NCBI RefSeq assembly: GCF_048403405.1
Contig: NZ_CP183129.1
From: Escherichia coli
GTDB lineage: Bacteria > Pseudomonadota > Gammaproteobacteria > Enterobacterales > Enterobacteriaceae
DNA: 64,000 nucleotides
Strand: one strand, 5' to 3'
Part shown: piece by piece, positions 2,596 to 41,544 of the stretch
Numbering within the stretch: position 1 is the stretch's first letter
How the letters are laid out: each line of letters begins with the position of its first letter
The notes under the pieces: model-generated
The model's database searches: none
What the model was told of the DNA's origin: nothing
Seen by the model: only the letters and a program-made list of their open reading frames with translations
Position numbers and translations under genes: made by a program

Positions 2596-4236
2596 TCACA
2601 CTGTAGCGAAACTAACTGGTTCACCCGCTCCGCGAGGTTCTGCCGACACAGAATGTTTGTTCAGACGGAATACGTCCACCGCCTCAGTTAATCGTGCCGC
2701 CTGTTCTTCAAGGGACACCGCCGCCGCTGAGGCCTCTTCTACCAGAGAAGCATTCTGTTGCGTCACCTTATCCATTTCAGAAATCGCCTGGCTAACCTGA
2801 GTTATGCCTCTGCTTTGTTCATCCGAGGCAGCGGCGATTTCCTGCATGATATGTGTGACACTCGCGACGGCATCAACAATAGTGCTCATGGTTTTCCCTG
2901 CCATTGCCACCTCATCCGACCCCAGGTCAATTAACCTGACTGATTCACTGATCAAGCCTTCAATCTCTTTCGTCGCCTGAGCGCTGCGGCTTGCGAGTGT
3001 CCGTACTTCGCTGGCGACAACGGCAAATCCACGCCCTTGCTCACCCGCTCGCGCGGCTTCAACGGCAGCATTCAGTGCCAGAATATTCGTCTGGAAAGCA
3101 ATACTGTTGATGACGGAAGTGATCTCGGAAATTTTCTTCGAACTCGTGGAGATAGCGCCCATCGTTTTTACTACACCGGAAACCGTCTGCCCGCCATCGC
3201 TGGCTTTAATAGAAGCCTCCTGCGCCAGTTTGCTGGCATGATGCGCGTTATCCGCATTCTGTTTCACCGTCGCAGTGAGTTGCTCCATGCTGGCGGCAGT
3301 TTGTTCAATTGCCGCCGCTTGTTCTTCGGTGCGAGATGACAGGTCCGCATTGCCAGAGGAAATTTCGCTGGTGCCACGATAAATCTCTTCCGCGCCCTGT
3401 CGAACGGTCCCTACTGTCATCCCCAGTGAATGCTGCATTTGCTGTAAATGACGACTTAAGCGACCGATTTCATTACGACCTGCCGGATCATCATTCATCG
3501 TCAGATCGCCACTGGCGATTTTTTCAATCCGTTGTGCGGCATGTTGCAGTGGACGAATGACGATCCGACGTAGCACTATAAATGTTATCAGCGTCATGAC
3601 CAGGGCAAGCACAAACGCGCCAATCATGAACATCCCACCCAGGCGGGTGCGCTGATGGGCCAGTTCCGCCAGTTGGTTGGCTCTGGTGCTACGTATCTTA
3701 ACGGCTTTGCTCAAAATATCGGTATAAGCATTATCCAGCGGTCGGATCTGCTCACTTTCATGATTGATAATCGCTTCAAACATGCCATTTTTGGCATATT
3801 TCAACATCGGTTGCATACCCGTGATATAAGCCTGGAAGCGTTGATTTAATTCAGTGTCGAGGGCTTCATCAGCAGGTGTTTTCACCGACCGATTCTGATA
3901 AGCACGATAACCTTGCTGCGACTGTTTAATCTCCGATTCGGCTTGCGCAATATTTCGCTTCATTGCTTCCATTTCAGCAATACGACTCGCAGCACCAGCC
4001 TGAATCATATTGATCCGGGCTGAACGCAAAAAATCTGAACTGTTCGCTAACCCGGTCCGAATCTCAATCTCCGCAGTAACATCACGCTGATCGCGATCGG
4101 CCTGCCAAAGGAAATAGCCGGCCAGGGCTGAACTTAATGCGAATAGAACTAAGATACCGCCAAGAATGCAGGCAAATAACGGAACCAGCCTGATGTGATG
4201 CAAAAAACCTAATCGCTGTGAGGGAGTTGTATTCAT
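2596..4236 (-). CDS. trg: methyl-accepting chemotaxis protein III (ribose/galactose sensor)
   Basis: 546 aa, two TM segments, conserved MCP signalling domain; synteny. Confidence 0.95.
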
Positions 4237-4275
4237 TACCGTTGTCTCTCTTCCAGGTTTACTCCTGATAGAAAG

Positions 4276-4302
4276 TCATCGGCACTTGACGGTAATTTCT
4301 TA
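4276..4302 (-). promoter_or_regulatory. candidate sigma28 (FliA) promoter for trg
   Basis: on the minus strand TAAGAAAT-N11-GCCGATGA, about 40 nt upstream of the trg ATG; -10 matches the GCCGATAA consensus 7/8, -35 only 4/8. Confidence 0.45.
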
Positions 4303-4611
4303 CGACCAAAAACCTCTTTGCGTCACATTTTTACAACAATTATGGCAGAGAAGAATAATGCCATTGGAATGAAGAGAGTAACGAATGATTAAACTGGCTA
4401 AACCGAATGACGAAAAATTCTGGAAAACAGCACGCAATTTCGTGAAGTGATTATTTTCGTCCCTAAGGAAACCTCATAGGATGCCTGCGGGTGCCTGAGA
4501 CTTTCTGTTTTCAGGCTAACCGGGAATCAGAAAGACGAAGGCCCCGACCGATATTTCTATCAACTGTACTGCACCCATTTTGTTGGACGATGAAATGGAA
4601 TAGCCCCTAAT

Positions 4612-5133
4612 ATGTCAAAGCCAAAATACCCTTTTGAAAAGCGCCTTGAAGTCGTGAATCACTACTTCACAACTGATGATGGTTACAGGATCATCTCGGC
4701 ACGTTTTGGTGTCCCCCGAACCCAGGTCAGGACATGGGTTGCCCTCTATGAAAAACATGGAGAAAAAGGTTTAATTCCCAAACCTAAAGGCGTTAGTGCT
4801 GATCCAGAGTTGCGTATTAAGGTCGTGAAAGCTGTGATCGAGCAGCACATGTCCCTTAATCAGGCTGCTGCTCACTTTATGCTTGCTGGTAGTGGTTCTG
4901 TAGCCAGGTGGCTGAAGGTCTATGAAGAGCGCGGAGAAGCTGGTTTACGCGCGCTCAAGATTGGCACCAAAAGAAACATTGCAATATCAGTTGATCCAGA
5001 AAAAGCGGCATCAGCATTGGAGCTGTCAAAAGACCGACGCATTGAGGATCTTGAAAGGCAAGTTCGATTTCTTGAAACGCGGCTTATGTATCTAAAAAAG
5101 CTGAAAGCCTTAGCTCATCCCACGAAAAAGTAA
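4612..5133 (+). CDS. insJ: IS150 OrfA (InsJ), HTH DNA-binding protein
   Basis: 173 aa MSKPKYPFEKRLEVVNHYF..., recognised as IS150 InsJ. Confidence 0.9.
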   Translation: MSKPKYPFEKRLEVVNHYFTTDDGYRIISARFGVPRTQVRTWVALYEKHGEKGLIPKPKGVSADPELRIKVVKAVIEQHMSLNQAAAHFMLAGSGSVARWLKVYEERGEAGLRALKIGTKRNIAISVDPEKAASALELSKDRRIEDLERQVRFLETRLMYLKKLKALAHPTKK

Positions 5134-5981
5134 AAGTACTCAACGAGCTAAGGCAGTTTTATCCTCTTGATGAGCTTCTCAGGGCTGCGGAGATACCGCG
5201 CAGTACGTTTTATTACCATCTAAAGGCTCTCAGCAAGCCTGACAAGTATGCGGACGTTAAAAAGCGTATTGGTGAGATTTATCACGAGAATAGAGGCCGA
5301 TACGGATACCGTAGGGTAACGCTGTCTCTTCATCGAGAAGGGAAACAGATTAACCATAAAGCTGTTCAGCGCCTGATGGGAACCCTCTCACTTAAAGCAG
5401 CGATTAAGGTCAAGCGATACCGCTCTTACAGAGGAGAGGTAGGGCAAACCGCCCCTAATGTTCTCCAAAGAGATTTCAAGGCTACGCGGCCAAACGAGAA
5501 GTGGGTTACCGATGTTACTGAATTTGCAGTCAATGGGCGCAAGCTGTATTTGTCTCCAGTAATAGATCTCTTCAACAACGAAGTTATTTCTTACAGCCTT
5601 TCGGAAAGACCAGTGATGAACATGGTTGAGAATATGCTCGATCAGGCATTCAAAAAGCTTAATCCTCACGAGCATCCTGTTCTGCACTCTGACCAGGGAT
5701 GGCAGTATCGTATGAGAAGATATCAAAATATCCTTAAAGAACATGGTATTAAACAAAGCATGTCCAGAAAAGGCAATTGTCTGGATAATGCTGTGGTGGA
5801 GTGTTTCTTTGGAACCTTAAAGTCGGAGTGTTTTTATCTTGATGAGTTCAGTAATATAAGCGAACTGAAGGATGCTGTTACGGAATATATTGAATACTAC
5901 AACAGCAGAAGAATTAGCCTGAAATTAAAAGGTCTGACTCCAATTGAATATCGGAATCAGACCTATATGCCTCGTGTTTAA
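5094..5981 (+). CDS. insK: IS150 OrfB (InsK) DDE transposase, expressed by -1 frameshift from OrfA
   Basis: orfB frame is open from 5076 with no canonical start before 5376; slippery heptamer A AAA AAG at 5094-5100; catalytic domain in 5376-5981. Confidence 0.85.
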
Positions 5982-6023
5982 CTGTCCAACTTTTTGGGGT
6001 CAGTACACAACCGAGGCCAACGA

Positions 6024-6231
<208 letters not shown>

Positions 6232-6302
6232 GGGCAAGCGCGGGGATTTTCCCCGCGCATCTGACTAGCAGATTCATTTTCTCATGGCACCCCTTTTACA
6301 CT

Positions 6303-6476
6303 TCAGTTAGTGCATGTTTTTTTCGATGCACTAATAGAACCATCATTACAGACAAATTTGCCGCCTGCCGTACAGTGTGAGATCCCCCCTTTCGAACCAG
6401 AACAGGGTTTGCGCCCGGCATCGGCATAAAAGGAAACAAGCGTTCCCATAAACAAGATAAGTGCCAGTTTTTTCAT
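6303..6476 (-). CDS. ydcA: small secreted/lipoprotein-like protein YdcA
   Basis: translated by hand: MKKLALILFMGTLVSFYADAGRKPCSGSKGGISHCTAGGKFVCNDGSISASKKTCTN (57 aa); GGAGG SD. Confidence 0.85.
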   Translation of the reverse strand: MKKLALILFMGTLVSFYADAGRKPCSGSKGGISHCTAGGKFVCNDGSISASKKTCTN

Positions 6477-6720
6477 ATAACCTCCATGGTTTATCGAATC
6501 TTATGTTCGATTTGAACGTTATACGCTGGTTTATTTTGATACCGTTGATGAGATCAAAGATCGGGCGAATTGATTAAAGATAAGCCAGATGGACGTATGG
6601 ATAAGGATTATGGTTTTATTTGTCATACAAATAAATATAATAGGCGCTTCCGATGTAGACCCGTATTCTTCGCCTGTACCACGGGTCGGTTTTAGTACAG
6701 GCGTTTTCTTTAAATATCCT

Positions 6721-7251
6721 TCAGGAACGTTTACGCGGCATCATGCGTAGAAGTGTGTTGTCCTTCCAGAAATAGTGGTGTGCCAGTGCAGCCGCAGCGT
6801 GCAACCCGATGACAAAATATCCCAGATTCGCCAGCATTTCATGCCACGACTTTAAGCTATCAACCCGTTCGAAATTGGCCTCTGATGCATAAGGCATCGT
6901 CAAACCAAACGCAAACCACGGGTTGCCTCGGTTATACATCATCACCAAACCAATCACTGGCAGCGCAATAAACAGGAGATAAATCACCAAATGTCCCAAA
7001 TGCGCCAGTCCCGTCATCATCGGTTTTGGCTTAGGTATAATCGGCGGGGTTGGGTATTTCAGCCTTAACAAAAGACGAACGACCATCAGCACGAGAATTG
7101 ATATGCCACAGGAAACATGAATCATGTTGATGAGTGGCCGATCGCTACGTGGGAAGAAACCCCGAAACTCCATTGCGCAATACGCTGCGATAACCAGCAT
7201 AAAGACCAGCCAGTGAATGCTGATTTGTAACCTTGAGTATTTATTTCCCAT
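6721..7251 (-). CDS. cybB: cytochrome b561
   Basis: 176 aa from MGNKYSRLQ; conserved His ligands in TM helices; start refined from the track ORF. Confidence 0.9.
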   Translation of the reverse strand: MGNKYSRLQISIHWLVFMLVIAAYCAMEFRGFFPRSDRPLINMIHVSCGISILVLMVVRLLLRLKYPTPPIIPKPKPMMTGLAHLGHLVIYLLFIALPVIGLVMMYNRGNPWFAFGLTMPYASEANFERVDSLKSWHEMLANLGYFVIGLHAAAALAHHYFWKDNTLLRMMPRKRS

Positions 7252-7439
7252 AACATTTCCTGCTTTAACATAATTTTCCGTTAACATAACGGGCTTTTCT
7301 TAAAATTTCATTAAATATTGTTCACCCGTTTTCAGTACGTTACGTTTCACGGCAAGAATGTAGATTGCCCATCCCGCCATCGTGGTCTAAGCCTGGAAAG
7401 GATCAATTTTCATCCGAACGTTCCTGACAGGAGAAGACC

Positions 7440-8441
7440 ATGAGTAAAGTTGGTATTAATGGTTTTGGTCGTATCGGTCGACTGGTGTTGCGTCGATTAC
7501 TTGAAGTCAAAAGCAACATAGACATTGTTGCTATTAATGATCTCACTTCCCCAAAAATTCTCGCCTACCTGTTGAAACATGATTCAAACTACGGACCGTT
7601 CCCCTGGAGCGTTGATTTTACGGAAGATTCACTTATCGTTGATGGAAAAAGTATCGCGGTTTACGCCGAAAAAGAGGCTAAAAATATTCCGTGGAAAGCG
7701 AAAGGCGCAGAAATCATTGTCGAATGTACTGGCTTTTATACCTCCGCCGAGAAATCGCAGGCGCATCTTGATGCTGGTGCGAAGAAGGTGTTGATTTCCG
7801 CCCCTGCCGGTGAAATGAAAACCATCGTTTATAACGTCAATGACGACACACTGGATGGCAACGACACCATTGTTTCCGTGGCGTCATGCACCACTAATTG
7901 TCTTGCACCGATGGCCAAAGCCTTGCACGACAGTTTCGGAATAGAAGTCGGCACGATGACGACCATTCATGCCTATACCGGCACTCAGTCACTGGTGGAT
8001 GGCCCGCGTGGTAAAGATCTACGCGCTTCACGTGCAGCGGCAGAAAATATCATTCCCCACACTACGGGGGCGGCAAAAGCCATTGGTCTGGTGATCCCAG
8101 AACTGAGCGGCAAACTGAAAGGTCATGCACAACGCGTACCCGTGAAAACCGGTTCGGTGACTGAACTGGTGTCTATTCTTGGAAAAAAAGTGACTGCCGA
8201 AGAGGTGAACAACGCGCTTAAAAACGCGACAAACAATAACGAGTCATTTGGTTATACCGATGAAGAAATAGTCTCTTCCGATATCATTGGCAGCCATTTC
8301 GGTTCGGTGTTTGATGCCACGCAAACCGAAATTACCGCCGTGGGCGATTTACAACTGGTGAAAACGGTCGCCTGGTACGATAACGAATATGGCTTCGTCA
8401 CGCAGCTTATTCGCACCCTCGAAAAATTCGCTAAACTCTGA
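7440..8441 (+). CDS. gapC: glyceraldehyde-3-phosphate dehydrogenase C (intact)
   Basis: 333 aa, NAD-binding GxGRIGR, active site [10 protein letters not shown]; uninterrupted frame. Confidence 0.9.
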
Positions 8442-8449
8442 CGCGCACA

Positions 8450-8480
8450 GGCGGAGGAAAAAACCTCCGCCTCTTTCACT
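8450..8480. terminator. bidirectional hairpin between gapC and aldA (ggcggagg-aaaaaa-cctccgcc)
   Basis: 8-bp GC-rich stem between convergent stop codons. Confidence 0.55.
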
Positions 8481-8482
8481 CA

Positions 8483-9922
8483 TTAAGACTGTAAATAAAC
8501 CACCTGGGTCTGCAGATATTCATGCAGGCCATGTTTACCATCTGCGCCGCCAATACCGGATTTACGCCATCCGGCGTGGAAGCCTTGCATAGCTTCGAAG
8601 TTTTCACGGTTGATGTAAGTTTCACCAAACTTCAGCCCTTTAATGGCTTTCATCGCGACGTTCAGATTTTGGGTATAGATTGATGAGGTCAGGCCGTAAT
8701 CACTGTCATTCGCCATTGCGATAGCATCTTCCAGCGTGTCAAATGCGACCACCGGCAGAACCGGGCCAAAGGTTTCCTCATGCATAATCGACATTTCCTG
8801 GCGAACATCCAGCAGCAATGTCGGCGGATAATAATATCCTTTCCCCTCTACCGCTTTGCCACCCAACGCCACTCTCGCCCCTTCTTCTACTGCGCGCGCC
8901 ACTTTTTGCTCGACCCTTTCCAGCGCCGCGGCGTTAATCAACGGCCCCATCGCAATGTCGTTGCGTTCTGCGGGGTTACCAAATTGAACCGCCTGCAACG
9001 CTTCACCCAGCCGATTGACGAACTGATCATAAATGCCTTTCTGTACATAAACACGTTCTGCACAGTTACACACTTGCCCACTATTAATGACGCGTGAATC
9101 AACGATGGCTTTGACTGCCAGTTCAAGATCGGCATCGTCCATTACGATAGCTGGTGCTTTACCCCCCAATTCCAGGCACACTTTGGTGATGTTTTTCGCC
9201 GCAGTCGCCATGATCTTTTCACCTGCAGAGACGCTGCCTGTCATACTGACCATTGCGACCTTTGGGTTACCCGCCAGTTCTTGCCCAACGGTTTCACCAC
9301 GCCCCAGAACAAGGTTAAACACGCCGCGCGGAAGGCCTATTTCATCGACGATTTTGGCGAATGCAATCGCATTGTTTGGCGTAAATTCACTGGGTTTAAT
9401 GACAATGGTATTACCAGTCAAAAGAGCGGGAGCCATTTTGCGGGCAATGAGGAAGAACGGGAAGTTCCACGGCAGAATGCCGGTAGTCACACCAAGCGCA
9501 CGTTTAAACAGAAGAATATTTTCTCCTGGACGATCGCTTTGAATAATCTCGCCCTCGTAACGCCGTGCCCACTCCGCCATGTAATCGATATAGTCCGCAG
9601 TAAAAGCCACTTCGACTTCAGCCAGCTGCTGGATCTTGCCCCCTTCTTCAACAATCAGCGCACTGATTTCACTGGCGCGTTCGCGGATCCCGACGGAGAT
9701 TTTGCGCAACCAACTGGCGCGTTCAATAGCAGGCAACGCTTCCCATTCTGGTTGTGCACGTTCTGCTGCATCGATTGCCTTACGGGCATCCTCGGCCTGA
9801 CCATCGGGAATGCGGGAAATGACAGCCTCTGTAGCAGGGTTTACCACATCAATCCATGCGTCTCCACGCCAGGTAACAAACTGTCCATCAATATACATAG
9901 GATGTTGAACGGGTACTGACAT
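8483..9922 (-). CDS. aldA: lactaldehyde dehydrogenase (NAD-dependent aldehyde dehydrogenase A)
   Basis: 479 aa aldehyde dehydrogenase; synteny. Confidence 0.95.
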   Translation of the reverse strand: MSVPVQHPMYIDGQFVTWRGDAWIDVVNPATEAVISRIPDGQAEDARKAIDAAERAQPEWEALPAIERASWLRKISVGIRERASEISALIVEEGGKIQQLAEVEVAFTADYIDYMAEWARRYEGEIIQSDRPGENILLFKRALGVTTGILPWNFPFFLIARKMAPALLTGNTIVIKPSEFTPNNAIAFAKIVDEIGLPRGVFNLVLGRGETVGQELAGNPKVAMVSMTGSVSAGEKIMATAAKNITKVCLELGGKAPAIVMDDADLELAVKAIVDSRVINSGQVCNCAERVYVQKGIYDQFVNRLGEALQAVQFGNPAERNDIAMGPLINAAALERVEQKVARAVEEGARVALGGKAVEGKGYYYPPTLLLDVRQEMSIMHEETFGPVLPVVAFDTLEDAIAMANDSDYGLTSSIYTQNLNVAMKAIKGLKFGETYINRENFEAMQGFHAGWRKSGIGGADGKHGLHEYLQTQVVYLQS

Positions 9923-10118
9923 GAGCGGCTCCTGTGATTTATATGTTTGTTTTTGGTAAATACATTGTTAATTAACATCAATCATCAGAGAGACGGCATC
10001 ATGAAAGGACAATTCTGTGAAGGGCTTCATAAAAACAAGTGTAAAAGGAATAAGAGGCAGAAATAAAAGGCAGGAGTTATGCCCGTTTGCAAACAAGTGG
10101 TTCACAAACGGGCAATTT

Positions 10119-10919
10119 TTAACGTAACGAGCGACTTTCCATCGCCTCGATGAGCACCGCATCGTGTTTCAGCGTTTGCCATGCATGGATGACTTCTGCC
10201 GGAAAATCAACGTGAACGATAAAATCTCGCCCGCGGGGACCGTAGCCATCGCTATCATCGCGTAAACGCGGCAGCTCGCCAGTGAGTAGTGAGAGATAAC
10301 GCTCAACCGGCCATAATCCTTGCAACGGATTAACAAAGATTACACTGTCTGCGTTGTTTCCTAGCTGAGGAACGAATCCGGGATAACTTAACCAGCGAGG
10401 TGCATCTGGATTGTCCCCGGTCATACGGCGGAACGTCGCCATCGTGCGCCGCTGCATGGTGGGGTCCTGAACAACGATAGCCGTATGAACTCGTTCTACG
10501 GCCTGATTCAATAGCGCGATGCTAAAGCGTGCGTTTTCACCGCAGTTTGTTGACTGGTCTTCAATCCAGATTTTTTCATGCGGAATATGCCAGAACTGAT
10601 GAGCGATATCGGCCAGGATGGTGGCTTCTGCTCTGCCAGTGGTGCGGATAGTGTTGTAGTGCGGATGCTGTGCGATAGCGCTATACAAAAAAGTTGTCGA
10701 GTGACCGATACCACCACTAATCAGTAGAGGAATTTGCTGATCGCGGGCAATCTTACATGCCGCATCGATAGTCGGCATAACCGCATTGCCTGCAAGGATC
10801 ACGCAATCGGCCTGATACGGCATCTCACCGGAGAAATCATCCTGCGCCAGCCACTGTCCGATAACATTTATGGCATCTATAGTTGCCGTCGAAAGCGTCG
10901 GAAACGGGGTAATGTTCAT
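10119..10919 (-). CDS. ydcF: DUF218-domain protein YdcF
   Basis: 266 aa matches YdcF. Confidence 0.9.
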
Positions 10920-11034
10920 GGTTCCTCCTTATCGTTCCCTTAAGAATACTGCGTGAGATAATAATGAGAAGCGGAGCACTCTGAAAGGAAGATGATGCTT
11001 TTTCTACCTCGCCATCGCGAACCAGACACTGGTT

Positions 11035-11412
11035 TTAGTCATACTGTATTTGCGGAGAAACTGTTGATAAAACATCAATAACATCATTTGACGTGGCAAT
11101 GACATAATGCTCGATCACATTATTTTTATAAATTTCACAACTTTGCATAGTAAACCATGCAAAGTAGGCGGAATTCACTACTCTATAGATCCCCGTTTGG
11201 TTAATACCGTGAATTCCTGACATTCCTAACAAATCACCTTCGTCAGTAACACGAAATGAATGTATCCAGTCAAATGATAACTTAACTTCTGACTTGATCG
11301 CCGGACATATGAGGGTAAGTTCAAGCCTGGCATTTTTATAGCTTAAATCTGATAGTTCGGCATTTTTAAAAGACAATGAAGTCGGAGTGATATTTATAAA
11401 ACATTCATCCAT
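11035..11412 (-). CDS. hypothetical small protein (islet ORF-A, 125 aa)
   Basis: ATG preceded by AGGGG SD; very AT-rich; no TM segment or recognised motif. Confidence 0.55.
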   Translation of the reverse strand: MDECFINITPTSLSFKNAELSDLSYKNARLELTLICPAIKSEVKLSFDWIHSFRVTDEGDLLGMSGIHGINQTGIYRVVNSAYFAWFTMQSCEIYKNNVIEHYVIATSNDVIDVLSTVSPQIQYD

Positions 11413-11531
11413 GTTAATACCCCTTCATATATGAGACTGCTCTCGATAGACGACACATTAACCTTCTGCAAAAACGGTGCGAGTCTGTTTACGTACCATG
11501 TATAATCGATGGACATTACTGTGATTTGAAA

Positions 11532-11981
11532 TTACCTTGTCCAGTCATCAACCATTTTTTTCAGGGGGAACATCTGCAATACATTCATTAATGCGAAATA
11601 TAATTCCCCCTGTGGCACCAATATTCTAATCTTCTCATCCCCTAAAATGAAAAATTGCAATTGACGTTTGAAACCTAATGTTTTATCTTCAGGTAATTCA
11701 GCTTGTATTTTTTTATTGATATCATCAAGGTAGATGTGATGACAATACTCATCAAACATACTCATTACTTCCAGACCGTTTACAGATGTCCATCTTTGTT
11801 CACTTTCCCAATAAACAAGAACCGGTTTGCGGCAGGTATATCTGCCTAAAAAGCGCTGAATGTGTTCTTCCTGATTCTCGTAAAATATTGCCTCTGCATT
11901 CGAGATTTGCCGACGCATTCGCCAGCGGATTTTTTCTTCATAAAAAGACAATTTGTCGCATTTGGTATTACTCAAATTCAT
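11532..11981 (-). CDS. hypothetical small protein (islet ORF-B, 149 aa from MNLSNTK)
   Basis: ATG at 11981 overlaps the stop of ORF-C by 11 nt (coupling geometry); the track start is a TTG 9 nt upstream. Confidence 0.5.
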   Translation of the reverse strand: MNLSNTKCDKLSFYEEKIRWRMRRQISNAEAIFYENQEEHIQRFLGRYTCRKPVLVYWESEQRWTSVNGLEVMSMFDEYCHHIYLDDINKKIQAELPEDKTLGFKRQLQFFILGDEKIRILVPQGELYFALMNVLQMFPLKKMVDDWTR

Positions 11982-12360
11982 TGTCAACAACTCGCATGGT
12001 TTTAAATATAAAATTTAAAAAACCGCCAAACAAATGAAGTGAAATTTCATACTTCTTTGCCTTATAAACAATTACCGCATCTTTAATATTACCTGCATTT
12101 TGGTTATCTATAAGTTCAGCAATATCCATAACCTGCGATAAATGTTCCACTCCCGTAAACTCGAACCTTTTTCGTTCCCTTCCGGCTGTAAATTCATCAA
12201 CATAAAGTTCTGCCGTCAATATAAAATTATACTCGGTGTGGTGACATTCCATTCTGGTTTCTACTAAAACACCATCATGCCAGATAATATTGTCTAAATT
12301 TTTCATACTATTAATCCAATCCATTACTTTCTGATAAAATTTCCTCTGGAAGTTTTTCAT
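11968..12360 (-). CDS. hypothetical small protein (islet ORF-C, up to 130 aa)
   Basis: open frame with three candidate ATG starts (M1, M13, M19), none with a strong SD; AT-rich. Confidence 0.45.
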   Translation of the reverse strand: MKNFQRKFYQKVMDWINSMKNLDNIIWHDGVLVETRMECHHTEYNFILTAELYVDEFTAGRERKRFEFTGVEHLSQVMDIAELIDNQNAGNIKDAVIVYKAKKYEISLHLFGGFLNFIFKTMRVVDNEFE

Positions 12361-12537
12361 AGAAAGAGATTAAAGCCTGACCGACGCAATCAAGCTCTAT
12401 TATTCGCTCATAATACGATCTCATTAAAATATCATGCTTACTCATTGCAATACGTCCTGTTTACCATGGGCAGAGTATGAATGTAACTTATGTAAAATAG
12501 TACCGCCCTTGCTATTTTTCAGAATTCATAAAGAAAA

Positions 12538-12566
12538 AACCCGGCGCTAAATGCTTACCGGGTTTT
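12538..12566 (-). terminator. rho-independent terminator downstream of hrpA
   Basis: stem AACCCGG/CCGGGTT with 13-nt loop, followed on the minus strand by a run of 6 T; lies 25-50 nt past the hrpA stop. Confidence 0.75.
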
Positions 12567-12590
12567 AGATTTATCAGGCAAATAGCAGTG

Positions 12591-15500
12591 TTAACCGCTA
12601 ATCTGCTCCATCGCCTGCAAAATACGCTTATCTGAAATCGGATAAGGCGTACCAAGTTGTTGAGCGAAGTAACTAACGCGCAACTCTTCTATCATCCAAC
12701 GGATCTCTTTCACGTCTTCATCCTCACGACGTGCGGGCGGCAGTTTGTTGATCCATTGCTGCCACGCCTGCTGGACATTTTCGACTTTCAGCATCTGAGC
12801 ACGGTCGCGATGTGGGTCAACCGCCAGTTTTTCCAGCCGTTTTTCAATCGCCTGCAAATAACGCAGCGTGTCGCCCAACCGTTTGAAGCCGTTACTAGTG
12901 ACAAAACCGCGATATACCAACCCGCCCATCTGCGCTTTAATGTCAGAAAGCCCCAGCGCCATGGTCATATCCACCCGCCCTTTCAGACGTTTATTGATAT
13001 TGAACACCGCAGTAAGGATTTGCTCGACCTGCTTCGCAATATCCACCACCGTGTCGTTCAGTTCAGCGCGGACTTTTTCATGCAGCGCAGCAAAACCTTC
13101 TTCCGTCCAGACCGGGCCACCATTGGCGTCGATCAGTTGATCCACACCGCAGGAGATACAGTCGTCGATCAGCTCCAGCACTTTGCCATACGGGTTAAAG
13201 TACAGCCCCAGCTTGGCTTTGTTTGGCAACTTCTCATGCAAATATTTGATTGGCGAGGGAATATTCAGCAGCAGTAGACGGCGAAGACCGTTCCACATTG
13301 CCTGCTTTTGTTCCAGCGGATTATCAAACAGTTTGATCGCCACGCTGTCGCGTTCATCCACTAGCGCTGGCCACGCCTTCACTTTATAGTTGCCACGCTT
13401 CTGTTCGTAGCTTTCCGGCAGCTGACCAAAACTCCAGATATGTAAGCCGCTCTGCTCGATACCGTCATCCGCCACCGCAGACAGCGTTTCCTGCACTTTG
13501 CCTTTCAGCGCATCTTTCAGATCTTGTAGAGAGCGCCCTTCTTTTAGCTTCTTGTTTTTGTCATCCACCACACGGAAGGTGATTTTCAGGTGATCGGGCA
13601 CCTGATCCCAGTGCCAGTCTTCGCGGTCAACGGTGACGCCAGTCATCCGCCGTAGCTCTCGTTCAAGGCTGTCGAGCAACGGCAATTCCAGCGGTGTGAC
13701 GCGGCCTAAAAAAGCTTCGGCGTAGTTTGGCGCGGGCACAAAATTACGCCGTACCGGTTTCGGCAACGATTTAATCAGAGCAATCACCAGTTCGCGGCGC
13801 AGACCGGGGATCTGCCACTCAAATCCGCTCTCCTCCACCTGGTTAAGTAACGGCAGCGGGATATGTACCGTCACGCCGTCCGCATCCGCCCCTGGCTCAA
13901 ACTGATAACTCAAACGCAGCTTGAGATTGCCCTGATGCCAGAAGTTCGGGTAATCCAGCTTGCTGATCTTTTCCGCCCCTTCTTTGATCAACATGCTCTT
14001 TTCAAAGTTGAGCAAATCAGGCGTTTCGCGGCTGACTTTTTTCCACCAGCTGTCGAAGTGACGTGCGGAGATCACATCGTGGCTGATGCGCTGGTCGTAA
14101 AACTCAAACAGCGTTTCGTCATCCACCAGAATATCGCGGCGACGTGTTTTGTGTTCCAGTTCTTCCACTTCGGCCCGTAGTTTCAGGTTTTCACGGAAGA
14201 ATGCGTGACGCGTCTGCCAGTCACCTTCCACCAGCGCGTGGCGAATAAAGAGTTCACGACATAACGCCGGATCGATCTGGCTGTAGTTGACCTTGCGCGC
14301 GGCAACAATCGGCAAGCCATAAACAGTGACTTTTTCCGTTGCCATCACCGCGCCCTGCGCCCGTTCCCAGTGCGGTTCGCTGTAGATGCGTTTAATCAAA
14401 TGCTGAGCAACTGGCTCCACCCATTCTGGATCGATGCGTGCCGCAATGCGCCCCCACAGGCGGCTGGTTTCTACCAGTTCCGCCACCATTACCCATTTCG
14501 GCGGCTTTTTAAATAAGCCGGAACCGGGGAAAATGGAGAAACGCGCGTTACGTGCGCCGGTATATTCTTGTTTATCGGCATCTTTCATGCCGATATGGGA
14601 AAGCAAACCGGTCAGTAAGGCGATGTGAATTTCGCGATACTCCGCCGGTTCGCTGTTAACCGGAATGCCAAGTTCTTTTACCACCTGGCGCAACTGGGTG
14701 TAGATATCCTGCCATTCGCGCACGCGCAGATAGTTGAGATAATCGGTACGACACAGGCGACGGAAAGCGTTGGAAGAAAGCGCCTTTTGCTGCTCGCCAA
14801 GATAATTCCACAGATTTACAAACGCGAGGAAGTCGGATTCTTTGTCGTGGAAGCGACGATGTTTTTCGTCCGATGCCTGCTGTTTGTCCATCGGTCGTTC
14901 GCGCGGATCCTGGATGGAGAGCGCGGACGTGATAATCATCGCCTCACGCACGCAGCCATGTTTTTGCGCTTCCAGCACCATACGCGCCAGACGAGGATCG
15001 ACAGGCAATTGCGAAAGCTGGCGACCGAGCGGCGTCAGTTTATAGGCGCTGGCCTGTTCATCAGTGGTGATCGCGCCCAGCTCTTCGAGCAGACGCACGC
15101 CATCCTGGATATTACGTTTATCCGGTGCTTCGACAAATGGGAACGCGGCGATATCGCCCAACCCCAGCGCGGTCATCTGTAAAATAACCGAGGCCAGGTT
15201 GGTACGCAGAATCTCCGGATCGGTAAACTCCGGGCGCGAGAGGAAATCGTCTTCGGAATAGAGACGAATACAGATCCCTTCGGACACACGACCACAGCGG
15301 CCTTTACGCTGGTTGGCAGACGCCTGCGAAATGGGCTCAATCGGCAAACGCTGCACTTTGGTGCGATAGCTGTAGCGGCTGATACGCGCCGTACCTGGGT
15401 CGATAACGTATTTAATCCCCGGTACGGTCAGCGACGTTTCCGCGACGTTGGTCGCCAGCACAATGCGCCGTCCACTGTGCGACTGGAACACGCGGTTCTG

Positions 15501-16493
15501 TTCGCTGTTCGAAAGCCGCGCATAAAGCGGCAAGATTTCGGTATGGCGTAAGTTCAGCTTGTTCAGCGCATCGGCGGTATCGCGAATTTCCCGCTCACCG
15601 CTCATAAAGATCAGAATGTCGCCGGGACTTTCCTGGCTCAGTTCGTCTACGGCGTCAAAAATCGCCTGCAACTGATCGCGCTCGGTGTCATCGGCTTCTT
15701 CAACAATCGGGCGATAGCGCACTTCCACCGGATAGGTCCGACCGGAGACTTCGATAATCGGCGCATTATTAAAGTGGCGCGAAAAGCGTTCCGGGTCGAT
15801 AGTCGCGGAAGTGATAATGATTTTTAGGTCAGGACGCCGCGGTAGCAACTCTTTCAAATAGCCGAGCAGAAAATCGATATTCAGGCTGCGTTCGTGCGCT
15901 TCGTCAATAATGATAGTGTCGTACTGCATCAGCAGGCGGTCTTGCTGGATCTCCGCCAGCAGGATACCGTCGGTCATCAGCTTGACCATCGTGTTATCAC
16001 TAACGTGATCACTGAAACGCACTTTGTAACCGATGCAACCGCCCGGCTCCGTTTTCAGCTCTTCCGCAATACGGTTCGCCACCGTTCGTGCCGCCAGGCG
16101 ACGCGGCTGGGTATGGCCGATCAGCCCTTTAATCCCGCGCCCCAGTTCCATACAGATTTTCGGTAGCTGAGTCGTCTTACCGGAACCGGTTTCCCCGGCG
16201 ACGATCACCACCTGGTGATCACGAATCGCTTCGAGAATGTCCTTCTTTTTCTGACTAACTGGCAAATTGTCGGGATAAGTGATTTCCGGTCGTGCCGCTT
16301 CACGCAGCAGGACTTTCCCTGCCGCCTGGTCAATCTCTTTCGCCATCTCCTGGAAAATGGCCTGTTGTGCATCAGGATTTTTAACCTTCTTCACACCGTG
16401 CAGACGGCGTAAAAAACGCTGTCTGTCGCGCAGCATCAGCGAATCCAGCCGCTGCTGCAAGGCTGTAAAGGTCAATTTTTGTTGTTCTGTCAT
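12591..16493 (-). CDS. hrpA: ATP-dependent RNA helicase HrpA (DEAH box)
   Basis: 1300 aa; GETGSGKTTQ and DEAHER motifs. Confidence 0.95.
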   Translation of the reverse strand: MTEQQKLTFTALQQRLDSLMLRDRQRFLRRLHGVKKVKNPDAQQAIFQEMAKEIDQAAGKVLLREAARPEITYPDNLPVSQKKKDILEAIRDHQVVIVAGETGSGKTTQLPKICMELGRGIKGLIGHTQPRRLAARTVANRIAEELKTEPGGCIGYKVRFSDHVSDNTMVKLMTDGILLAEIQQDRLLMQYDTIIIDEAHERSLNIDFLLGYLKELLPRRPDLKIIITSATIDPERFSRHFNNAPIIEVSGRTYPVEVRYRPIVEEADDTERDQLQAIFDAVDELSQESPGDILIFMSGEREIRDTADALNKLNLRHTEILPLYARLSNSEQNRVFQSHSGRRIVLATNVAETSLTVPGIKYVIDPGTARISRYSYRTKVQRLPIEPISQASANQRKGRCGRVSEGICIRLYSEDDFLSRPEFTDPEILRTNLASVILQMTALGLGDIAAFPFVEAPDKRNIQDGVRLLEELGAITTDEQASAYKLTPLGRQLSQLPVDPRLARMVLEAQKHGCVREAMIITSALSIQDPRERPMDKQQASDEKHRRFHDKESDFLAFVNLWNYLGEQQKALSSNAFRRLCRTDYLNYLRVREWQDIYTQLRQVVKELGIPVNSEPAEYREIHIALLTGLLSHIGMKDADKQEYTGARNARFSIFPGSGLFKKPPKWVMVAELVETSRLWGRIAARIDPEWVEPVAQHLIKRIYSEPHWERAQGAVMATEKVTVYGLPIVAARKVNYSQIDPALCRELFIRHALVEGDWQTRHAFFRENLKLRAEVEELEHKTRRRDILVDDETLFEFYDQRISHDVISARHFDSWWKKVSRETPDLLNFEKSMLIKEGAEKISKLDYPNFWHQGNLKLRLSYQFEPGADADGVTVHIPLPLLNQVEESGFEWQIPGLRRELVIALIKSLPKPVRRNFVPAPNYAEAFLGRVTPLELPLLDSLERELRRMTGVTVDREDWHWDQVPDHLKITFRVVDDKNKKLKEGRSLQDLKDALKGKVQETLSAVADDGIEQSGLHIWSFGQLPESYEQKRGNYKVKAWPALVDERDSVAIKLFDNPLEQKQAMWNGLRRLLLLNIPSPIKYLHEKLPNKAKLGLYFNPYGKVLELIDDCISCGVDQLIDANGGPVWTEEGFAALHEKVRAELNDTVVDIAKQVEQILTAVFNINKRLKGRVDMTMALGLSDIKAQMGGLVYRGFVTSNGFKRLGDTLRYLQAIEKRLEKLAVDPHRDRAQMLKVENVQQAWQQWINKLPPARREDEDVKEIRWMIEELRVSYFAQQLGTPYPISDKRILQAMEQISG

Positions 16494-16684
16494 AACGTTA
16501 GTGGGCAGTAGTCTGCCTGATTAATTTTCTTTTAAATGATAGATATAGAGTACCACATCGCGGCTTTCTATGCGTTGTTCAATAAATTCGAACATAGGCT
16601 TCGATTTATTGCGCTATCTCTGTGGCAGGATTGTGAATAAAGTGTCAGCAAGCAACGGGGCATCGCCCATTCAAACATCTATAA

Positions 16685-17299
<615 letters not shown>

Positions 17300-17313
17300 C
17301 CGGACACGGTCTT

Positions 17314-17343
17314 GATGTGGACTGTAGATATTCAGTCCACATC
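17314..17343. terminator. 10-bp hairpin between convergent azoR and ynbD
   Basis: gatgtggact / agtccacatc perfect stem; no clear T-tract. Confidence 0.4.
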
Positions 17344-17352
17344 TCAATCCGC

Positions 17353-20416
<3,064 letters not shown>

Positions 20417-20431: not shown

Positions 20432-21328
20432 TCAGTAACAGCAGTAGCGAATAAAATAAAAAAATACCGGAGCGGTGAAAATTAATGAGTCAATCCTGTC
20501 AAGGAGTCCGCCATGTCCTGGTAATAGTTTTCCACTATCTTTAACACCAATATCTCGTTTGATGGCTGACATCACTACATCGCCGCAAAAACCACTAATA
20601 CCAATTAACAAACCCGTTAATAATGCCTGTAATGTATTTACCGGTGTCAGTAACGGTCCAATAATCAGTGACACAATCATGGTAGTGATTACGCCCCCCA
20701 CCAGACCTTCCAGCGTTTTTCCCGGGCTGACTTTGGGGACCACTTTTCTTCTGCCGCAGGATTTCCCCCATAAATACTGTGCAATATCGTTTGACTCGGT
20801 TAATGCCAAAAGAAATAACACCAGTAACGCCTCGCCCTGGATATTTATGGTTGGCAACATTAACAACCAGGCGGCATGACTCAAGGCGAAAACGATCATT
20901 ATCCAGCCCCAAAAAATGGCGCTCACAGTATGCAGAAAACCGGAGGGGTCCCCCACAAAAACTTGCCCGGTGGCTAATATCAGAAACCCAGCCAAAGGTA
21001 TAAATAACAGATACAGCTCAAAGCAATTAAAACCGATAAACAAATAGTTAAGAGGAATACCCCAATATAACCAACGCGGAAAATGTACAGATATAAGCGT
21101 ACAATATTCTTTCAATGCCAGAAAACTTATCAGCGCAAAAAACGTCAACGTCATCCAGCGTGGACCTGAAATCACCATTGAAAAACAAATGACGATGCCC
21201 CACCAGGTACGAATACGTAATGTAACTTCATCCCCTTTTCTCTCCGGTAACCGCCATATCAGAAAACGGTTTATCAGCGTTGCTAAAATTAACAACGCGA
21301 AAAGTGTTGCCAGAGATTTTTCCAGCAT
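20432..21328 (-). CDS. ynbB: CDP-diglyceride synthase-family membrane protein YnbB
   Basis: 298 aa polytopic protein; synteny. Confidence 0.85.
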   Translation of the reverse strand: MLEKSLATLFALLILATLINRFLIWRLPERKGDEVTLRIRTWWGIVICFSMVISGPRWMTLTFFALISFLALKEYCTLISVHFPRWLYWGIPLNYLFIGFNCFELYLLFIPLAGFLILATGQVFVGDPSGFLHTVSAIFWGWIMIVFALSHAAWLLMLPTINIQGEALLVLFLLALTESNDIAQYLWGKSCGRRKVVPKVSPGKTLEGLVGGVITTMIVSLIIGPLLTPVNTLQALLTGLLIGISGFCGDVVMSAIKRDIGVKDSGKLLPGHGGLLDRIDSLIFTAPVFFYFIRYCCY

Positions 21329-25523: not shown

Positions 25524-25565
25524 AGGTATCACATGCTAAAAATTAGAACGTCCAGCATCAGGACG

Positions 25566-26156
25566 TTACTGTTTCGGTCGCAGATTCTCATCAAATACCA
25601 GGCGCTGCCTGCCAGGTTCAACTTCCCGCAATGGCTCAACTTGATGCAACGTCTGCTTACAGCGTGTCACCAGCACCTGGTACTCATGCGTACCCTGCTT
25701 TTTCCATGCCAACTCCTGCTCACTGAGTTCACGAATCGCTTTCGCCGGGCTGCCGACAATCAGGTAATTAGCAGGCATTTCTGCTTTGGCTTTCACAAAT
25801 GCGGATGCACCCACAATACTGTTCTCACCAATCACCGCACCGTCCATCACTACCGCATTCATTCCCACTAATGCATTGCGGCGGATAATGCAGCCGTGAA
25901 GGATAGCGCTATGACCAATATGCCCATCTTCTTCCACGACAGTATCCTGCTCGGGAAAACCGTGCATAACGCAATTATCCTGAATGTTCGCGCCATCTTT
26001 CACCACGATACGACCAAAATCGCCACGCAGGCTGGCATTTGGCCCAACGTACACGCCCTTGCCGAGAATAACATCGCCGATCAATACCGCTGTCGGATGG
26101 ACAAAACTCTCTTCTGGCACAACCGGAGTCAGGCCGTCTATCTGATAAATTGGCAT
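25566..26156 (-). CDS. paaY: phenylacetate pathway hexapeptide-repeat protein PaaY (thioesterase)
   Basis: 196 aa matches PaaY. Confidence 0.9.
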
Positions 26157-27088
26157 AACGCCTCCTGTTCAATATTCAAGCCGCCAAAACGTTGAAAATA
26201 CAGGCTTCCCGGCGCAGGCAATTCACCGACCGAGGTTTCACCTTTTTCACTAACGAACGCTAAAGCAGCAGGCGCTACGCGCTGATAAATGTTGATACAC
26301 AGCTGACGCGCCGTATGCCCTGCCCAGTGTGCCGGAAGCAACTCCTCCGGCAACAATGGGTCTTTAAGGACGACACGGCGATAAAAATGGATCAGTAAAA
26401 GCTGAATATGAAATGCCCGCTCCGGGGTTAACTCGTCTGCCGCCTCTTTTAACAGCGGCACCAGCGGGCGGAATGACTGAATAAAGGTTTCGTACATGGC
26501 ATTTTGTTCAGTTAAATGCCAGCACTCTTCTACTCTGGCACGCAGTGCTGCGCGAGAAAGCGCCAGTGGTATTTGCGCTTCAAAACAAATCACGTTATCC
26601 GCCACCCCCGCTTCATGCAAAAGTGTCTGTACATCCGCCAGTTTTTGCGACGGCGATGCCATCAGGCTGGGTGCCAGTGCGCCAAAACCTTGCCAGATCA
26701 ACTGCTTTTTGACATCAGCCAGCGTTGATTTATCTAAACCTTCCGAGAGCAACAGGAGCCATTTACCATCCCATGCAGGTTGCTCTGCGCGATAAATTTT
26801 ACTTTCTGCCCGTCGCGTCAGGCGCAAGCCTTTATCACTGAGGCTATAGAAACTGCGTCGCCCGATGCGGGAAACATCCAGCCAGCCTTCTTTATTAAGA
26901 CGAAACAAAGCGGTGCGCACGAAACGCTCACCAAATCCCAGCCCTTCCAGCAAAGCAGCCAGACTACCCAGCCAGATTTCACCACCACGATGGGAAAGCG
27001 AATCACCATACAGAGAGGAGATCAAAGATGTGCCACTGACCGGAACAGCGTTTACAGCATGTTGGATAAAAGTATCAAGTTTACTCAT
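26138..27088 (-). CDS. paaX: phenylacetyl-CoA-responsive repressor PaaX
   Basis: 316 aa matches PaaX. Confidence 0.9.
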
Positions 27089-27188
27089 TCGATTCAGTCT
27101 GTTGTTATTGTTGTGATTTATGAATCATAGCACAGGTCGTATCGACTTCTGGCCCTGGCGCTTTACCTCACCAGGGCCAGACGACACG

Positions 27189-28502
27189 TCAGGCACCAAC
27201 AATATTGCGCAGATCAAACACCCGACACGCCTTGCCTTCTGAACGCGGGATACTGCCACAGTTAACGATCATCACATCGGTAGAGATCCCCACCATCGAC
27301 TTAATCCGATGGCGCAGCTGGTGGCACACCTGGCAACGCTGCTCATGCGTCAATGTCAGGCTACTTTCTTTCAACTCCACTTTCACAGAAAGTGAATCAA
27401 GATGCCCCCGGCGGTTCACCTCCAGTTGGTAATGGGGCGATAAATGTTCGAATTTGACAATCTCTTCTTCCAGTTGTGACGGAAAGACATTTACACCGCG
27501 AATAATCAACATGTCATCGCTGCGTCCGCTGATGCGATCCATGCGGCGCATAGTCCGCGCCGTTCCTGGTAACAGTCGGGTTAAATCACGCGTGCGGTAA
27601 CGAATGACCGGCAATGCTTCTTTGGTCAGCGTGGTGAATAACAGTTCGCCATGTTCACCATCGGCAAGCGGTGTGCCGTCCTGAGGATTAACAATTTCAG
27701 GATAGAAATGATCTTCCCAAATGGTTGGGCCGTCGGTAGTTTCCAGACACTCCATCGCCACCCCCGGCCCCATCACTTCTGACAGACCATAAATATCTAG
27801 TGCGGTGATCCCCAGGCGACGCTCAATCTCTTTACGCATGGCCTGTGTCCACGGCTCAGCACCAAATACTCCAACCCGCAGCGAGCAACCGCTGGCATCA
27901 CCGCCCAACTGCCGCTCCAGCTCTTCAATTAGGTTAAGGCAATAAGATGGCGTAACCATGATCATATCTGGTTGAAAATCACGGATCAGTTGCGCTTGTT
28001 TTTCCGTCTGCCCGCCAGACATCGGGATCACCGTAGCGCCCAGACGTTCGGCACCATAGTGCGCACCCAGCCCGCCAGTAAACAGGCCGTAACCATAGGC
28101 GACATGAATTTTGTCTTTGGGCGAGCCCCCTGCCGCACGCAAAGAACGCGCTACAATATTGGCCCAGTTATCAATATCGTTTTGCGTATAGCCGACAACT
28201 GTCGGTTTACCTGTGGTTCCCGAAGAAGCATGAATGCGCACCACTTGTTCCATTGGCACGGCAAAGGTGTCAAAGGGATAGTTGTCGCGCAGATCCTGTT
28301 TGGTGGTACAGGGAAATTTACGCAGGTCTGAAAGTTCCCTGAAATCATCAGGATGTACGCCTGCTGCGTCGAATTTGCGCCGATACATCGGCACATTTTC
28401 ATACGCGTGTTTGAGCGTCCATTTCAGACGCTGTGTTTGCAACGCCTGTAACTCATCAACAGACGCGGTTTCAATCGGGTCAAGCTTTGTATTGGTTATC
28501 AT
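27189..28502 (-). CDS. paaK: phenylacetate-CoA ligase
   Basis: 437 aa from MITNTKLD; adenylate-forming enzyme. Confidence 0.9.
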   Translation of the reverse strand: MITNTKLDPIETASVDELQALQTQRLKWTLKHAYENVPMYRRKFDAAGVHPDDFRELSDLRKFPCTTKQDLRDNYPFDTFAVPMEQVVRIHASSGTTGKPTVVGYTQNDIDNWANIVARSLRAAGGSPKDKIHVAYGYGLFTGGLGAHYGAERLGATVIPMSGGQTEKQAQLIRDFQPDMIMVTPSYCLNLIEELERQLGGDASGCSLRVGVFGAEPWTQAMRKEIERRLGITALDIYGLSEVMGPGVAMECLETTDGPTIWEDHFYPEIVNPQDGTPLADGEHGELLFTTLTKEALPVIRYRTRDLTRLLPGTARTMRRMDRISGRSDDMLIIRGVNVFPSQLEEEIVKFEHLSPHYQLEVNRRGHLDSLSVKVELKESSLTLTHEQRCQVCHQLRHRIKSMVGISTDVMIVNCGSIPRSEGKACRVFDLRNIVGA

Positions 28503-28528
28503 TGTAGGGTACTCGCAGGTTGATATGC

Positions 28529-29734
28529 TCAAACACGCTCCAGAATCATGGCGATGCCCTGACCGACACCGATGCACATGGTGCATAATGCATAACGACC
28601 GTTACGCCGATGCAGCTCATGGCTGGCAGCCAGTGCCAGGCGGGCACCACTCATTCCCAACGGATGGCCTAAGGCGATAGCGCCTCCGTTGGGGTTAACA
28701 TGTGGGGCATCATCAGGCAGCCCCAATTCGCGTAGTACACCCAATGCCTGAGCCGCGAACGCTTCGTTCAGTTCAATCACGTCCATATCGTGAATACTCA
28801 GCCCCGCACGTTCCAGCACCCGGCGAGTTGCAGGCACCGGACCAAGCCCCATCAGGCGCGGTTCCACCCCGGCGGTTGCCATGGCTACGATACGCGCTCG
28901 CGGCGTCAGTCCTTGCGCTGCTGCCATCTGTTCACTGGCAATAATCAACGCAGCGGCTCCGTCATTCACCCCGGAGGCATTGCCTGCGGTAATCACCCCA
29001 TTGGCACGAAATGGTGCTTTTAACCCACGTAACTGTTCCAGCGTCGTTTCCGGGCGCAGATGCTCATCATGTTGTATTTCTGTTACAACACCTTTCTTAT
29101 TTTTCAAGACGACCGGAACAATCTCCTCAGCCAGAATGCCTGAGGATTGCGCTTTTGCCGTACGTTGCTGACTGCGTAGCGCAAAACTATCTTGATCTTC
29201 TCGTGATATTTTTAACAGTTCAGCTACATTCTCTGCCGTTTCCGGCATGCTGTCAGTTCCAAATTGCTGAGCCATGAGCGGGTTCACAAATCGCCAGCCA
29301 ATAGTGGTATCGAACATCTCTGCCTGACGAGAAAATGCACTGGCTGCCTTGCCCATAACAAACGGTGCCCGTGACATTGACTCCACGCCACCGGCGATCA
29401 GCAAATCGCCATCGCCCGCTTTAATCGCCCGTGCGGCAAACCCCAGTGCGTCCAGCCCGGAACCACACAAGCGGTTAATGGTTGTGCCGGAAACACTCTG
29501 CGGCAGCCCCGCCAGTAAAGTCGCCATCCGGGCTACGTTACGGTTATCTTCTCCCGCCTGATTAGCACAGCCGAGGATCACATCATCGATACATTCCGCA
29601 TCGAGACGCGGGTTTCGCACCAGCAGTTCCCGCAAAGGGATAGCAGCCAGATCATCAGCCCGAACACCTGATAATGCCCCGCCGTAGCGACCAATTGGCG
29701 TACGAATTCCGTCACAGATAAAGGCTTCACGCAT
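28529..29734 (-). CDS. paaJ: 3-oxoadipyl-CoA / 3-oxo-5,6-dehydrosuberyl-CoA thiolase
   Basis: 401 aa thiolase. Confidence 0.9.
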
Positions 29735-30156
29735 CAGGCTTCTCCTGTAATGGTGCCGCCGATGCGGTGAGATTTACCGCGAAACAGCGCAACCGTTTTT
29801 TGTTGTTGGTTAACAATTTCGATGTCGTAAACACCGGTTTGCTTGCCCTGATGACGAACCTGCGCAGTAGCAGTTAAAGTGTCTCCGGCAAAGCCTGGAC
29901 GTAAAAAATCAATCGTGCAGGCAGAAGCGACGGCTGCCAGCCCCTGGCTATTGCAGGCGTAGGCAAAGGCAGTATCAGCCAGTGAAAATAGCTGCCCGCC
30001 GTGGCAACTTTGATGACCATTAAGCATTTGTGCAGTGACGGTCATGGTCACTACAGCAAAGCCTTCATCCATTGAGATAATGTCGATGCCAAGTGCTTTG
30101 GCGCAGGCATCGTTCTCATACATTGCATGGGCATTTTGCCAGGCCTTATGACTCAT
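29734..30156 (-). CDS. paaI: hotdog-fold acyl-CoA thioesterase PaaI
   Basis: 140 aa from MSHKAWQ. Confidence 0.9.
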   Translation of the reverse strand: MSHKAWQNAHAMYENDACAKALGIDIISMDEGFAVVTMTVTAQMLNGHQSCHGGQLFSLADTAFAYACNSQGLAAVASACTIDFLRPGFAGDTLTATAQVRHQGKQTGVYDIEIVNQQQKTVALFRGKSHRIGGTITGEA

Positions 30157-31573: not shown

Positions 31574-31574
31574 G

Positions 31575-34179: not shown

Positions 34180-34186
34180 GGCATCC

Positions 34187-34684
34187 TCAAATACATTTGA
34201 AATAATCGAAAGGTTCGCGGCAACTATCGCAGCGATACAATGCTTTGCAGGCCGTGGAACCAAATTCACTGATAAGTGTGGTATGGACGCTGGCGCAGCG
34301 CGGGCAACGTACTTCTGGCGGCAAATGGGCATGGCAACTATGTCCTGCGGGCGGGCTAATGCCATACAGTCGCAGACGCTCACGAGCATCGGGGGTCATC
34401 CAGTCGGTGGTCCATGCCGGGTCGAGTTGCAGCACAACCTGAACGGGAGTAAACCCGTGGGTTGTCAGTGCCTCACGTATCGCGCCAATCAAATGTTCCG
34501 TTGCCGGACAACCGGAATATGTCGGCGTAAAGCCGATCACCCATCCTTCTCCCATCTGTGTCACATTACGCACCATGCCTAAATCGGTAATGGTCAGCAC
34601 CGGGATCTCCGGGTCCGGGATCTGGCTGAGTAGCGCCCATATTTCATGAACCTGTGGCGGTGCAATGGTGGCCAGACGTTGCAT
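34187..34684 (-). CDS. paaD: phenylacetyl-CoA epoxidase subunit PaaD
   Basis: 165 aa from MQRLATI. Confidence 0.85.
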   Translation of the reverse strand: MQRLATIAPPQVHEIWALLSQIPDPEIPVLTITDLGMVRNVTQMGEGWVIGFTPTYSGCPATEHLIGAIREALTTHGFTPVQVVLQLDPAWTTDWMTPDARERLRLYGISPPAGHSCHAHLPPEVRCPRCASVHTTLISEFGSTACKALYRCDSCREPFDYFKCI

Positions 34685-34698
34685 ACCCATCTCCTCTG

Positions 34699-35445: not shown

Positions 35446-35453
35446 TTCCGACC

Positions 35454-35741: not shown

Positions 35742-35752
35742 TTTGAAACTCC

Positions 35753-39012: not shown

Positions 39013-39023
39013 TTGGTCAATGA

Positions 39024-41533: not shown

Positions 41534-41544
41534 TTGTTTCAGAC

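Follow-up and report, generated by a model that had tools for sequence, protein, structure and literature searches.

The gapC locus of Escherichia coli K-12 is annotated as a pseudogene. The copy studied here raises the question of whether gapC is an intact gene for a working GAPDH in other strains, and which of the two states is normal for the species. The original prediction described an uninterrupted gapC frame of 333 codons with an NAD-binding motif and a catalytic Cys, and proposed that it encodes a potentially functional third GAPDH-family enzyme.

Reading frame and product of gapC

The window (the whole 64,000-nucleotide stretch of E. coli DNA analysed here) contains gapC as a single open reading frame (ORF) at 7440..8441 on the plus strand. 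By ORF listing and direct reading, it has an ATG start and 333 codons plus a stop codon, and is uninterrupted. The product was identified as a type I NAD-dependent phosphorylating GAPDH using the ORF, Pfam, TIGR01534, and PDB matches. Both Pfam domains are complete, with Gp_dh_N (PF00044) at residues 3–102 (profile 2–100 of 101, E = 8.9e-36) and Gp_dh_C (PF02800) at residues 155–313 (profile 1–158 of 158, E = 4.4e-58). The type I GAPDH equivalog TIGR01534 aligns end to end (profile 1–330 of 330, E = 6.8e-134), and its score of 446.2 bits is above the curated cutoff of 367.2. Since the alignments with TIGR01534 and PDB chain 7c5f_O both run end to end, the ORF is far beyond chance. Strains with identical sequence have the gene annotated as an intact 'gap' (WP_000048645.1). 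The predicted frame is thus borne out by the ORF, the domains, TIGR01534, and the PDB alignment, and a search for overlooked disruptive changes in gapC found none. ORFs of 71, 75, and 67 amino acids occur inside gapC in other frames or on the opposite strand; these are short, lie within a conserved coding gene, and were taken as chance occurrences.

Catalytic and ligand-binding residues were checked against the list given in the EcGAPDH1 paper (PMC8615399). All of them (Arg11, Ile12, Asp34, Lys78, Ser120, Cys150, His177, Thr180, Thr182, and Arg232) are kept in the window GapC. Both motifs named in the prediction are present in the sequence, the NAD-binding motif as 10 residues at positions 5–14 and the catalytic motif as 12 residues that contain Cys150. 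Of the NAD+ site expected of a family member, the window GapC has the GxGxxG loop (G8-F-G10-R11-I12-G13), Asp34 as the contact to the adenosine ribose, Lys78, and Ser120. The catalytic pair of a type I GAPDH consists of Cys150, in the motif SCTTNCLAP, and His177; direct reading and the residue check place their codons at 7887..7889 (TGC) and 7968..7970 (CAT) on the plus strand. The phosphate site (Ps/new Pi) is represented by Thr180, Thr182, and Arg232, and also by Arg195.

Correspondence to a crystallised enzyme

All 333 residues of the window GapC align with PDB chain 7c5f_O (E = 5e-218), and 330 of these are identical (99.1%). The substitutions from GapC to this protein, EcGAPDH1, are I29V, N262Q, and N265T. 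None is at a listed active-site residue, and all three are natural polymorphisms that occur in other E. coli alleles. The crystallised sequence is that of an O104:H4-type gapC allele. The PDB papers use a name other than gapC, and on sequence comparison EcGAPDH1 can be equated with GapC. The EcGAPDH1 PDB series is reportedly tied to Zhang et al. 2020, Acta Cryst F 76:406.

Wild-type EcGAPDH1 is active, with a Km for G3P of 0.73 mM and a kcat of ~2.2e5 per min, both taken at the non-physiological conditions of 50 C and pH 10 (PMC8615399). The C150A mutation abolished activity, H177A lowered it ~8000-fold, and the structures solved include the thioacyl intermediate as well as bound NAD, phosphate, and G3P (PMC8615399). 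This near-identical protein has dehydrogenase activity, which answers the doubt, raised with the prediction, that the product might lack it. The kept residues, the activity of the near-identical protein, and a low dN/dS support a potentially functional third GAPDH-family enzyme, and we strongly infer that the window allele would itself be functional.

Lesions of the K-12 allele

The annotation of MG1655 treats gapC (b4493) as a pseudogene, and PGAP flags the DH1 copy, which has the same sequence, as 'frameshifted; internal stop'. The window and K-12 copies differ at 39 of 1002 aligned nucleotides (963/1002 identical, 96.1%). Two of the K-12 changes are disabling, a nonsense mutation at codon 39 and a −1 frameshift in an A-run, and both were found by the alignment to K-12 gapC that had been proposed for locating the lesion. 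Codon 39 is AAA (Lys) in the window (7554..7556, plus strand) and TAA in DH1 and MG1655, so that the stop codon begins at window position 7554. An A7 homopolymer at codons 248–250 (8183..8189, plus strand) has lost one nucleotide in K-12, where it is A6. K-12 gapC additionally carries R18G; the window allele has neither R18G nor either lesion. The other differences are nearly all synonymous, and comparison with a frame-repaired K-12 gapC gave Sd = 32, Nd = 5, and dN/dS = 0.044.

The K-12 gene had been described as a split pseudogene, gapC_1/gapC_2. Its pseudogene status stands, but the split form does not: current annotation lists a single pseudogene, b4493, and the lesions are two (nonsense and frameshift) rather than one split. 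In one sampled B2 strain, NRG 857C, the A7 run is broken by a synonymous G (GGAAAGAAAGTG), which removes the slippage-prone homopolymer from that allele.

Gene neighborhood and expression

Upstream, gapC is divergent from cybB (6721..7251, minus strand), and downstream it is convergent with aldA (8483..9922, minus strand), beyond which lies ydcF (10119..10919, minus strand). The order cybB-gapC-aldA-ydcF is the same in the window and K-12, as expected of members of one gapC ortholog group. A putative Shine-Dalgarno sequence, AGGAG, was read directly at 7429..7433 (plus strand), 6 nt 5' of the gapC ATG. The divergent cybB-gapC intergenic region (7252..7439, 188 nt) presumably holds the gapC promoter and has eight nucleotide differences between the window and K-12. 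A consensus sigma-70 promoter scan of 7150–8600 gave nothing above shuffle expectation; its only weak match (9/12) lies inside the 5' end of cybB.

In K-12, the gapC/cybB intergenic region has a ChIP-seq peak for RNA polymerase-sigmaS (PMC4447067). Transcripts of gapC are reported to be rpoS-dependent in K-12 PTS- strains, and K-12 gapC_1 has a 5.6-fold change in the differential-expression table of work on growth under carbon and energy limitation. In EPEC, a gapC transcript was detected and was reduced in a csrA mutant, that is, CsrA-dependent. A passage in PMC2949598 citing Espinosa-Urgel and Kolter 1998 describes gapC as intact in environmental isolates, mutated in laboratory strains, and preferentially expressed in fresh water. 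A summary of the Espinosa-Urgel and Kolter work in PMC1796617 calls the gene laterally acquired. An intact gapC outside K-12 and an active enzyme are therefore both already published.

Between gapC and aldA, a gap of 41 nt contains a hairpin predicted by folding at 8449..8472, with a 9-bp G+C-rich stem (AGGCGGAGG and CCUCCGCCU) and an A6 loop. Its minimum free energy is −18.5 kcal/mol (z = −4.8 against shuffles), and it resembles a terminator, one that might act for both gapC and aldA. A terminator pattern scan does not include this hairpin in its list because the T-tract is weak and short (TCTTTC). The seven sites that the scan does list are in gapC, cybB, or the cybB-gapC intergenic region and were disregarded. 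An Rfam scan of 5000–11000 produced no match overlapping gapC. The sole match in that range is the RydC sRNA (RF00505, 92.5 bits) at 6647–6710 on the plus strand, directly downstream of cybB as in K-12.

Relatives of the window

Positions 6008–18000 of the window are 100% identical over 12 kb to MS 69-1, TUM14771, and 4621. Strain 7/2 has a gapC that is 100% identical to that of the window, and its flanks are 98–99% identical with structural differences or rearrangements. The full identity of gapC to 7/2, against 98.3% for the surrounding 19.5 kb, suggests that the locus may be a recombination mosaic. For a chromosomal gene of E. coli, gapC shows unusually high divergence between alleles, with dS values as high as 0.20 and most genomes 95–99% identical to the window gapC.

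Other features of the window also differ among these strains. An IS150 element (IS3 family, 1,443 nt) occupies 4565–6007 between trg and hokB, with orfA at 4612–5133 and orfB from ~5376. Its insertion point on MG1655 is 1492142–1492145, which falls within sokB, the annotated gene of an antitoxin sRNA (1492119–1492175), so that sokB is split; the element probably also separates hokB/mokB from the upstream leader. MS 69-1 has this IS150 in its annotation, whereas 7/2 and K-12 lack it. Nothing in the aligned stretch of 7/2 corresponds to a ~19-kb section at 25551–44503; 7/2 instead has a 6.1-kb autotransporter gene by pdxI. ORF sizes suggest that this section is a putative catabolic gene cluster. 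In addition, ynbB (20432–21328, minus strand) is an intact ORF of 298 codons in the window, and its 7/2 ortholog is flagged as a pseudogene with an internal stop.

Intact and broken alleles across E. coli

We searched complete E. coli genomes for the gapC locus and found it in 5,417 of 5,426. Alleles were counted using 55-nt queries in which each 28-nt megablast seed was forced across the diagnostic base. Of the 5,426 genomes, 1,155 (21%) have the TAA39 allele of K-12, and the Lys39 allele was identified in 3,717 by the 55-nt query. This two-query census left ~545 genomes unassigned, mainly with the O157:H7 haplotype, which was missed because flanking SNPs prevent seeding. Exact matches to that haplotype, which is also Lys39, were found in 368 further genomes, bringing the Lys39 total to at least 4,085 of 5,426 (75%). 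The A7/A6 state was read from match length (1001 versus 1002 nt) and from translated loci, the A-run probably being masked by the BLAST low-complexity filter.

A lysine at codon 39 is not by itself proof of an intact gene, and sampled alleles were therefore translated. All seven non-K-12-type alleles translated are intact and unflagged (strains 7/2, MS 69-1, O157:H7 FRIK2069, O83:H1 NRG 857C, O104:H4, CH458, and 042). Across the species the intact form of gapC predominates, and intact gapC has been described in the literature before. Pairwise dN/dS among intact alleles ranges from 0.02 to 0.09 with dS up to 0.20, indicating that gapC is under strong purifying selection.

The K-12 lesions were also found in isolates from outside the laboratory. 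Both lesions are present in river-water isolate KFu023, whose gapC is identical to that of MG1655 over 1001 nt, in chicken isolate W409, which differs from MG1655 by 1 nt, and in duck isolate BL12, which differs at 12 ungapped positions. Matches of 1001 nt account for 7 of 39 full-length rows in an evenly spaced sample, including dog, donkey, and human isolates. Since wild isolates carry both lesions, these are characteristic of a natural lineage to which K-12 belongs and are no product of laboratory passage. The gene has also been lost in another way. In raw-milk strain SCPM-O-B-7615, IS1A replaces the 3' 80% of gapC together with the 3' end of aldA (positions 3001–5178 of locus L007), and this IS1-associated deletion is a second, independent way of losing gapC. 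With about one-fifth of genomes lacking a functional gene and at least one more strain having it deleted, gapC is dispensable in some niches.

It is possible, though on balance doubtful, that the loss is an old lineage-wide event, probably in the phylogroup A / K-12-like clade, that reflects a change of niche and not the domestication in the laboratory of which the literature speaks, with intact GapC selectively maintained elsewhere as an isozyme for cold, fresh water, or stationary phase. If this is true, absence of a working gapC could serve as a marker of ecology.

Interpretation of the locus

We consider it very probable that 7440..8441 is the intact ancestral gapC, encoding a chromosomal type I NAD-dependent phosphorylating GAPDH, and that the K-12 pseudogene is derived within one lineage; the literature suggests for GapC the condition-specific role of a back-up isozyme. 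The mechanism has been shown for a protein three residues different and would extend to the window allele. GapC would act as a homotetramer in which the N-terminal Rossmann domain (Arg11, Ile12, Asp34, Lys78, and Ser120) binds NAD+, the Cys150 thiolate attacks the aldehyde of G3P, and His177 helps hydride transfer to NAD+. Inorganic phosphate bound on Thr180, Thr182, and Arg232 would then cleave the thioacyl-enzyme and release 1,3-bisphosphoglycerate. The intact gene is the normal state of the species, and the allele with TAA39 and the A7-run deletion is a derived one, confined to one lineage and carried by about one-fifth of sequenced genomes. From published work, this isozyme would be transcribed under sigmaS control, during carbon limitation, and in fresh water, and GapC would not be the main glycolytic enzyme.

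GapA provides the glycolytic GAPDH activity of E. coli, which leaves room for two other readings of an intact gapC. One is that the frame is intact by chance and the gene is functionally silent, cryptic and decaying as in K-12, with no contribution to fitness. Besides the activity covered by GapA, this reading draws on the failure of the 7150–8600 scan to recognise a sigma-70 promoter and on the loss of gapC at least twice independently, by point lesions in the K-12 lineage and by the IS1-associated deletion. We regard it as very unlikely, since dN/dS values this low at such synonymous divergence are unlike neutral drift, every translated allele of non-K-12 type is intact, and gapC transcripts are reported in both EPEC and K-12, with sigmaS dependence.

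The other reading accepts an intact ORF and assigns the enzyme a different substrate or role, such as that of erythrose-4-phosphate dehydrogenase (Epd/GapB) or of the ArsJ-associated GAPDH in arsenate resistance. With GapA already serving glycolysis, it could appeal to matches of the gapC product to NCBIfam models for these enzymes, but those matches are far below the cutoffs. The erythrose-4-phosphate dehydrogenase models score 279.9 bits against a cutoff of 539 (NF010058) and 277.4 against 530.55 (TIGR01532), and the ArsJ-associated model NF033735 (G3PDH_Arsen) scores 307.3 against 450, whereas the generic type I GAPDH equivalog was passed. No arsJ-like gene is next to gapC, whose neighbors are cybB and aldA. 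The near-identical EcGAPDH1, moreover, oxidises G3P at high turnover, and its crystal structures include those with G3P and with the thioacyl intermediate (PMC8615399). A wide preference for G3P over erythrose-4-phosphate is already largely established for EcGAPDH1. That gapC serves some other substrate or role is accordingly extremely improbable, and the reading of gapC as an ancestral G3P-oxidising GAPDH is preferred.

K-12 is unrepresentative at this locus: in most E. coli, gapC is to be regarded as a genuine gene, which bears, for example, on metabolic models and on the design of gapA knockouts in non-K-12 strains. Beyond correct annotation the significance is small, and the in vivo role of gapC is loosely defined (fresh water, sigmaS, and carbon limitation). 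Only one aspect is mildly new, namely that wild isolates also carry the K-12 pseudogene allele, whose origin is therefore not laboratory passage.

Comparison with known GAPDH systems

The orthologous locus in K-12, b4493 (formerly gapC_1 b1417 and gapC_2 b1416), lies between cybB and aldA as it does in the window. EcGAPDH1, described as 'type 1 GAPDH from Escherichia coli' (PDB 7C5F, 7C5H, 7C5P, and 7C7K, plus mutant entries), corresponds to the same gene product as the window gapC, and its crystallised form has a 19-residue N-terminal tag. Once the E. coli entries are set aside, the highest-scoring PDB sequences are GAPDHs of other bacteria (~410–480 bits), among them 3K73, the Staphylococcus aureus GAPDH (PMC8615399).

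Within E. coli, GapA (b1779) has the same fold, catalytic Cys and His, SCTTNCLAP motif, and reaction as GapC. The two proteins are 46% identical (156 of 337 aligned columns), and the GapA-type equivalog NF011954 (PRK15425) scores the gapC product at 302.4 bits, below its cutoff of 662. Epd (GapB), the erythrose-4-phosphate dehydrogenase, belongs to the GAPDH superfamily and has the same two domains, but GapC is not a member of its subfamily. Judged by identity to GapA and by model scores, GapC is a distinct GAPDH paralog, outside the GapA-type, Epd, and ArsJ-associated subfamilies.
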